From: Octopus vulgaris
Lineage: Eukaryota
Length of the DNA: 64,000 nt
NCBI GenBank assembly: GCA_951406725.2
Contig: OX597834.1
Coordinates: 14,942,001-15,006,000 of the forward strand
Reading direction: 5' to 3'
Below are positions 25,854-26,437 of the stretch, piece by piece. The position numbers and the translations under genes were made by a program. Below the pieces are notes generated by a model. That model was not told the origin of the DNA and did no database searches. It saw nothing but the letters and a program-made list of their open reading frames with translations. Every line of letters begins with the position of its first letter. The stretch's first letter is position 1.

Positions 25854-26437
25854 GTTGAATGCTATCGTTATATGTGTAAATATACAATATAAACAATTAT
25901 AGAAAAATGGAGGAGAAAAAGATGTTGAATCAAAATATGATTTAATATGAAATAGTATTCACTACACTTTCTGAGGGCGAGGTGCGTTAGCCCGTCTCCG
26001 TTGGTTAACCGTGCCTGCGGTTTCGTGGAGCAGCGGGCCCGTTCGAGAGAAGCGCGTAGGTCCCGACGTTGGCGGGGCGCTTAGCTGAGACCTGGGGACG
26101 CTGCGCGCCCACCAACCCAATGGGTACGGATCGCGACGACGGATCGGGGTGGAGGAGTGTGTCCGAGGTCGGCACCCCGGAAATCGAGGGCCGATGAGGC
26201 CGCAGACGACCGCCCGCGGAACGAGTGGCCGCCATTGGTTCCGTTTGTCAGCCACGACGGCGCCTAGGCGGGATGCAGCGGACTGAGTCCCCACGCGATC
26301 GCGATTGCGGTCCTACCCCAGCAAGCGTATTGATTCCTATTTCGTATTAAATATAATTTTGATTCAACATTTTTTTCTCCTCCATTTTTCTATAATTGTT
26401 TATGGTATATTTATACCCTATAACGATATTTTTCAAC
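25854..26437. other. ~115-bp imperfect inverted repeats enclosing a 353-bp GC-rich non-coding block
   Basis: Arms 25854-25969 and 26323-26437 share ataaacaattatagaaaaatggaggagaaaaa.atgttgaatcaaaat. The core 25970-26322 is ~67% GC by hand count (40-44 G+C per 60-nt line). Confidence 0.9.

Follow-up and report, generated by a model that had tools for sequence, protein, structure and literature searches.

An inverted Penelope-like element joined to a fragment of host 28S rRNA at a predicted hammerhead cut site in Octopus vulgaris

Structure of the locus

The window, i.e. the whole stretch of 64,000 nucleotides of Octopus vulgaris DNA analysed here (contig OX597834.1, positions 14,942,001 to 15,006,000), contains at 25970-26322 a block of 353 nt with 67.7% GC, 48 CpG and sharp edges. 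This block is the GC maximum of the window, its top 200-nt stretch reaching 0.705 and the next 0.60, and the arms beside it are reverse complements of each other (25/30 in the innermost 30 nt, 102/121 columns overall). The GC- and CpG-rich block with its sharp edges, the inverted arms with their 25/30 match and two open reading frames of 110 and 76 aa were described in a first-pass annotation, and all of them are present. The locus is almost certainly one inverted insertion of a Penelope-like element (PLE), the 3' end of which is fused to old host 28S sequence at a predicted hammerhead cut. This high confidence applies to the anatomy, which comprises the 28S core, the PLE arms (one tailed, one tailless), the same join in both arms, the coincidence with the predicted cut and the recurrence in six other families. 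The parts of the locus, in window coordinates, are:

25821..25853 (start approximate), no strand: (TA)n microsatellite target on the left, preceded by (CA)n, read from the sequence
25854..25966, minus strand: tailless arm, a PLE 3' end that starts at the predicted hammerhead cut (25966) and reaches terminus B (25854)
25967..26318, minus strand: 28S rRNA fragment 439-808, sense on the minus strand and collinear with the tailless arm
26319..26325, plus strand: the final 7 nt of the 28S fragment (802-808) once more, inverted
26326..26437, plus strand: tailed arm, a PLE 3' end that starts at the predicted cut (26326) and reaches the terminus-B position
26438..26575, plus strand: 138-nt tail to terminus A, present in the tailed arm only, 89% to the family over 247 nt
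26576..26640 (end approximate), no strand: (TA)n microsatellite target on the right, read from the sequence

Both window arms carry the same 28S/PLE join, at which no homology between the two partners is found. Position 25970, the mirror of the right-arm copy, is G in a contig of run X6, which bears another species label, so that the 28S sequence is restored there and the joins of the two arms are identical. The ctt|aag palindrome centre, at which the first-pass annotation placed the boundary, consists of bases of the 28S end that are present in both arms, while the right arm does not stop at 26437 but runs on through the 138-nt tail to 26575.

An assembly artefact, one of the origins left open by the first-pass annotation, might explain that no single public record spans the whole stretch, but it is refuted by contigs of other studies which cross each junction, one of them from another species. 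The right junction is crossed by a 408-nt contig of run X2 with 7 differences, and the left junction by a 92-nt contig of run X1 (possibly the source sample) with 0 differences and by a 336-nt contig of run X6 (other species label, other study) with 34 differences. Run X2 also contains a 372-nt record aligning to window 25990-26369, a second composite version about 92% identical and with the same right junction, which has a depth similar to that of the near-identical contig and several ancestral bases in common with the other-species contig. This second version may be an old allele, a paralog missing from the assembly or the product of a mixed sample. Other inverted repeats in the window lie at 26866-27093, 15063-15793, 31781-33981 and 47858-48793, so that fold-back insertions are common here. 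A SINE-like repeat occupies 25335-25735; many copies of it lie in the window and at other loci, and it presumably resembles known octopus SINEs.

The core as an old copy of host 28S rRNA

The core is a decayed antisense piece of host 28S rRNA, 79% identical over 369 columns to the copies of the rDNA array. In the host genome (2.8 Gb, 227 contigs), 43 matches to the core are found from 54 candidates, the best non-self match among 40 scored being at 79%. Seven of the matches sit in a tandem array on contig C20 with a spacing of ~18 kb, which holds SSU, 5.8S and LSU genes according to Rfam, and the core-matching copies lie inside the RF02543 hits. In a numbering counted from the Rfam LSU start in locus L005, the core is the antisense of 28S positions 439-808, a region which we take to be D2 / ES7L. 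The first-pass annotation saw no rRNA signature in the block, which in fact matches the LSU gene of the rDNA array, and it named a match of the core to host rDNA as evidence against its own reading; such a match, to host 28S, is what was found. The GC-rich block is a variable stretch of 28S which Rfam does not score by itself, and over the locus Rfam gives only weak microsatellite-driven matches and nothing in the core.

Two further origins considered in the first-pass annotation, foreign DNA and an unknown structured RNA, would be compatible with a block that is only 79% identical to today's rDNA and still has 48 CpG. However, 15 of the 58 substitutions that separate the core from today's rDNA are common to at least three of 10 old dispersed host copies, old indels are also in common, and the core groups among these orphan copies in a tree (with weak support), all of which contradict the horizontal acquisition suggested by the foreign look of the block. 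The 43 private substitutions include 28 GC>AT changes vs 6 AT>GC changes, a strong decay that speaks against a foreign, artefactual or functional block, and on neither strand does the core fold any better than shuffled sequence (z -0.61 and +0.37), which contradicts a functional RNA. Foreign origin is thus refuted along with artefact, and the three readings together retain a negligible probability. By its sequence, the core is classified as a host-derived old rDNA type with neutral-looking decay, and the locus is now a dead pseudogene.

Some other interpretations of the core were rejected. The 110- and 76-aa frames have no coding role, being frames over rRNA sequence. When core and arms are searched separately in the host genome, the core is 28S and the arms belong to a high-copy PLE family, and the other arm pairs do not enclose the same cargo: the arms flank the core in only 1/30 loci and in 0/10 further loci. 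An amplified 28S-derived SINE is rejected on these counts, as each chimera has a different partner and the composite has not been amplified as a family. A candidate second composite copy at C17:42.27 Mb is an unrelated old 28S piece without arms.

The unit of the C20 array at L002:1-950 contains an internal 28S duplication of several hundred bases with a period of ~577 nt, and a short extra LSU piece is scored by Rfam past the 28S end in the same unit. Two different old 28S pieces (L020:2766 and L086:552) are flanked on their 3' side by one and the same sequence (93% over 46 nt).

The arms as PLE 3' ends with a predicted hammerhead ribozyme

The left arm, for which the host genome has 373 candidates, lies within a longer repeat whose two ends are fixed, A (tail) and B (no tail). 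Two inverted arms are present in 9/29 other family copies, eight of which have one A end and one B end, the ninth being cut short, and the longer arm of these ordinary two-arm copies is either one. The window insertion has B at the left and A at the right (26575), and (TA)n adjoins both of its ends as well as many family copies. In longer copies, the sequence upstream encodes, in the same sense as the arm, a CxC..YIG..CCHH domain together with an N-rich stretch and a YRDD reverse transcriptase (RT) piece. The broken RT and endonuclease (EN) pieces match an intact RT+EN frame of 955 aa at another place in the genome at 48% and 29%, respectively. The EN piece matches a protein atlas cluster with a score of 0.95, 11% of whose members carry PF01541 (GIY-YIG); one protein homolog bears the name 'Reverse transcriptase domain', and Argonauta is the source of a protein relative. 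No RT or GIY-YIG match is given by Pfam on the RT and EN pieces and the intact frame, 'Penelope' occurs in none of the database labels of the matches, the search of longer proteins with the EN piece gives 0/82 candidates, and the PDB search with the RT piece gives nothing relevant. The zinc motif of the arm family may be Neptune-like (a PLE clade). From these motifs and ends, the arms are identified as two head-to-head 3' ends of a high-copy PLE in (TA)n.

In the accessible parts of PMC8557442 and PMC3846280, PLEs are characterised by 5'-truncated inverted copies, a tail on one side and targets in (TA)n; in that of PMC11167929, the tail is defined by two RT start sites, with both strands extended. 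As far as these three sources describe endonuclease PLEs, the window family shares with them head-to-head 3' ends with a one-sided tail in a (TA)n target, one frame with RT plus a GIY-YIG-like domain at the C terminus, separated by an N-rich stretch, and a hammerhead in the pLTR. The window insertion differs in that its centre is host 28S instead of element sequence, joined at the hammerhead cut, and the published tails are 30-40 nt long vs 138 nt in the window family, which counts against the assignment. Host DNA captured between pLTRs is described for A. vaga PLEs, with no link to a ribozyme site in the text examined.

The first-pass annotation was right in spirit in proposing an element with captured cargo; the element, however, is a Penelope-like retrotransposon and not a foldback or TIR DNA transposon. 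A DNA transposon of that kind (Pack-MULE, MITE) is rejected, as the arms are internal to a longer RT-encoding family and the ends are unequal (tail); a target duplication is not visible in (TA)n.

Related elements occur nearby and elsewhere. In the window, 26642-26860 and 20270-20400 are further 3' ends of PLE type; both terminate in (TA)n and contain minimal hammerhead motifs in a decayed state. The intact 955-aa RT+EN frame (L192:614-3481; C2:168.27 Mb) belongs to a related, apparently young PLE family with many near-identical copies listed and a canonical minimal hammerhead in the same locus.

Intact copies of the window family contain a predicted type I hammerhead motif just 5' of the arm start base, composed of CUGAUGA, a long helix II, GAAA and a 2-bp helix III with a palindromic loop, followed by UA. 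The motif contains the core CUGANGA / GAAA / UH and three helices, as assessed with our own descriptor, pair counts and slid and shuffled controls. Stem pairing in 18 copies holds in 64/72, 52/54, 203/210 and 35/36 cells, while slid controls reach at most 34/72, 37/54, 102/210 and 21/36, and the core bases are kept in 15-18 of the 18 copies. The predicted cut is the start of both window arms (25966 on the minus strand, 26326 on the plus strand). That both arms stop at the same base was the real clue provided by the first-pass annotation, and it follows from this base being the predicted PLE hammerhead cut and from both arms carrying the same 28S join.

The descriptor, which was written after the joins had been seen, matches at the join site in 7/29, 1/11, 7/11, 8/11 and 6/11 copies of five families, the family with 1/11 giving 8/11 when one known extra base is allowed; it has no match elsewhere in the sequence stretches scanned and at most 0.014 matches in each shuffled sequence. 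The Rfam hammerhead models give no family up to E 10 on the intact copies L040 and L131, so that the ribozyme call rests on our own descriptor. The partner of the L017 chimera passes the descriptor on the sole family copy available. The partner of L021 has the 3' half and the helices but fails the descriptor, with T at core position 6 in 3/3 copies; a permuted hammerhead is unneeded for it, as a sister family beside the intact frame of L192 has the ordinary minimal layout. These motifs resemble the minimal type I hammerheads of PLEs and animal retrozymes, as described in the accessible text of PMC4209133 and PMC7229834, in the type I topology, the 1-2 bp helix III with a palindromic loop and the U3-A8 core variant, which is present here in two partner families. 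The same part of PMC4209133 reports that minimal PLE hammerheads cut poorly in vitro, and the accessible part of PMC11167929 reports for an anole PLE no RNA-seq reads beginning or ending at the cut; both count against cutting.

The family of L177-L187 and window 17656-17750 (minus strand) has an A3-U8 hammerhead core variant, and the L153 chimera marks its predicted cut. The L007 chimera has as its partner family (L117-L127, L142-L147) a young tandem and inverted repeat of ~0.5 kb with a predicted hammerhead per unit, similar to retrozymes, of which several copies are altered by deletion or inversion at the cut or close beside it.

Recurrence of the join and its possible origin

The survey set consists of 34 dispersed 28S pieces outside the rDNA array and outside five long unit-like copies. 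The 3' flank was compared for 26/34 pieces, against repeats of the fetched loci only, and 7/26 are joined exactly at a predicted hammerhead cut, in seven different families. The other 19/26 have no hammerhead join, nor a recognisable hammerhead family at another position, within this library of fetched loci. As the survey was seeded from the 28S core, it gives no capture rate for other RNAs. The seven chimeras are:

Window: 28S end 808, inverted, two arms
L007: 28S end 924, inverted, two arms
L022: 28S end 811, inverted, two arms
L153: 28S end 810, inverted, two arms
L092: 28S end 811, single arm
L021: 28S end 810, single arm
L017: 28S end 811, single arm

The 28S and PLE sequences are sense-to-sense in 7/7 chimeras, and the 28S end falls at 808-811 in 6/7. 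Four of the seven are inverted insertions, and in 4/4 the join is common to both arms, which share a 28S stretch of 7, ~12, ~18 or 62 nt. A start at the cut is seen in 4/73 ordinary family copies (two more flagged rows are mutation or offset artefacts) vs 6/6 chimeras, giving a Fisher p below 1e-5 with or without the two flagged rows. A pattern of the old-type 28S gives 16 matches, of which L160 was dropped as a chance match; 5/15 true matches end at 808-811, and the binomial p of this pile-up is 0.004 to 3e-7, depending on the assumed run-on length. Positions 808-811 are weakly paired in the predicted fold, in which 924 is a helix end, and the accessible text of PMC6912279 describes site-specific cleavage in ES7L of yeast. 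Partner-blind pattern searches, which look immediately 5' of the cut for bases that are not of the family, give 0 matches in the window family, 8 in the L007 family (the 2 L007 arms and 6 family rearrangements) and 4 in the L022 family (the 2 L022 arms and 2 altered family copies), so that the sole foreign partner found in these three families is 28S, at 2 loci.

The seven joins in seven families are likely to be fossil evidence of germ-line ribozyme cutting, as joins exactly at the predicted cut in so many families would be hard to explain unless germ cells had cut RNA which was used as template. A host RNA joined at a PLE ribozyme cut is absent from the literature searched (mostly open papers, main text only, available in part), while the ingredients are known there: PLE inverted insertions, PLE hammerheads (PMC4209133) and 28S/L1 chimeras (PMC13174262). 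The pattern also points to a recurrent break in one 28S rRNA loop.

An origin at the DNA level, in which end joining filled a break at the centre of an existing PLE palindrome (cruciform tip) with a piece of rDNA and the arms were later converted to be alike, is very improbable. The family does form palindromes (L034, L054), and many dispersed rDNA pieces occur without a PLE partner; however, such an event predicts neither the ribozyme cut site in seven families nor the sense-to-sense polarity, nor would it lead one to expect a 28S end repeated in the second arm, single-arm chimeras (L021, L092, L017) or the 808-811 hot spot in 5/15 pattern matches, and the recurrence largely refutes it.

When a hammerhead cleaves its RNA, the downstream product carries a 5'-OH. 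In the route that we consider somewhat probable from the sequence pattern, self-cut PLE RNA would be ligated to a 28S breakdown fragment and reverse-transcribed twice into (TA)n. The hammerhead would cut the PLE RNA, leaving the 5'-OH, while 28S would break in the poorly paired region at 808-811, leaving a cyclic-phosphate end, and an RtcB-type ligase would join the 28S end to the PLE end. Two RT runs, from the fixed starts A (tail) and B (no tail), would then copy one chimeric RNA onto both nicked strands, one run reaching 370 nt into 28S and the other 7 nt, and the two cDNAs would be joined head to head. The tailed window arm contains 7 nt of 28S vs 370 nt in the tailless arm, which argues that neither arm was simply copied from the other, and the smaller share in the tailed arm suggests that the join existed before both copies were made. 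The 28S piece may thus mark the template, tailed and tailless arms both deriving from one that already carried the join, which bears on how PLE inverted repeats form.

In the accessible parts of the sources, cyclic-phosphate and 5'-OH ends are joined by RtcB in the formation of U6/L1 chimeras (PMC6789731), and retrozyme RNA cut by hammerheads is an RtcB substrate for ligation in vitro (PMC7229834). The U6/L1 retrocopies of PMC6789731, as far as described there, likewise have the host RNA 5' and the retroelement 3', in the same sense and with a blunt join, and their cyclic phosphate and 5'-OH are the ends expected of broken rRNA and a hammerhead product. They differ in that U6 has the fixed end and L1 a variable one, whereas in window-type chimeras the element end is fixed by its own putative ribozyme; the partner here is an internal 28S fragment, and ligation is here proposed. 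Human 28S/LINE-1 chimeras (n = 18; PMC13174262) similarly contain 28S fragments of a few hundred nt from a preferred region, mostly in sense, but they involve another class of retroelement and another region of 28S and have neither a ribozyme nor inverted arms, and the words 'ribozyme' and 'Penelope' are absent from the accessible text of that paper. Tailless rRNA retropseudogenes (PMC5322556, in part) are also 3'-truncated rRNA copies ending at defined single-stranded positions, but they are L1-primed directly at the target and have target duplications, whereas here the 28S end is joined to element RNA.

The same anatomy could arise without a chimeric RNA, if RT, on reaching the 5' end of the cut PLE RNA, ran off it and continued by an end-to-end jump at the 3' end of a 28S fragment, the second arm resulting from a repeat jump on the same two RNA ends or from a copy of the first cDNA followed by a flip of the centre. 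This origin is possible, if rather doubtful. Template jumping predicts the same join, which counts against the ligation route, and would also give blunt sense-to-sense joins at fixed RNA ends; 28S/L1 chimeras are explained by ligation or template switching in the accessible text of PMC13174262. A single first strand can moreover explain the long 28S in the tailed arm of 3/4 inverted chimeras (L007, L022, L153), yet ordinary copies also have either arm longer. The join is identical to the base in both arms in 4/4, though the 28S ends vary between loci (808-811, 924), and the mere 7 nt in the tailed arm of the window call for a flip or for the same jump made twice. If the centre between the arms flipped at a later time, the window orientation could in turn be explained without two reads of one RNA. 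That PLE hammerheads cut in the germ line, that the cell ligates the 5'-OH product to a defined 28S fragment from one loop and that the arms come from one RNA molecule, taken as one claim, appears evenly balanced between true and false.

The approach needs nothing but genome sequence to map the cut sites of putative ribozymes, odd variants included. If the ligation route is true, such chimeras would provide a genome-wide fossil assay for ribozyme activity, for the rRNA cleavage site and for PLE inverted-repeat formation. A further 28S piece (L029:1393-1770; C2:79.24 Mb) ends at 811 and is joined to AT-rich sequence ending in (TA)n, with a 20-nt inverted copy of the AT-rich end on the other side, and is probably an eighth chimera.
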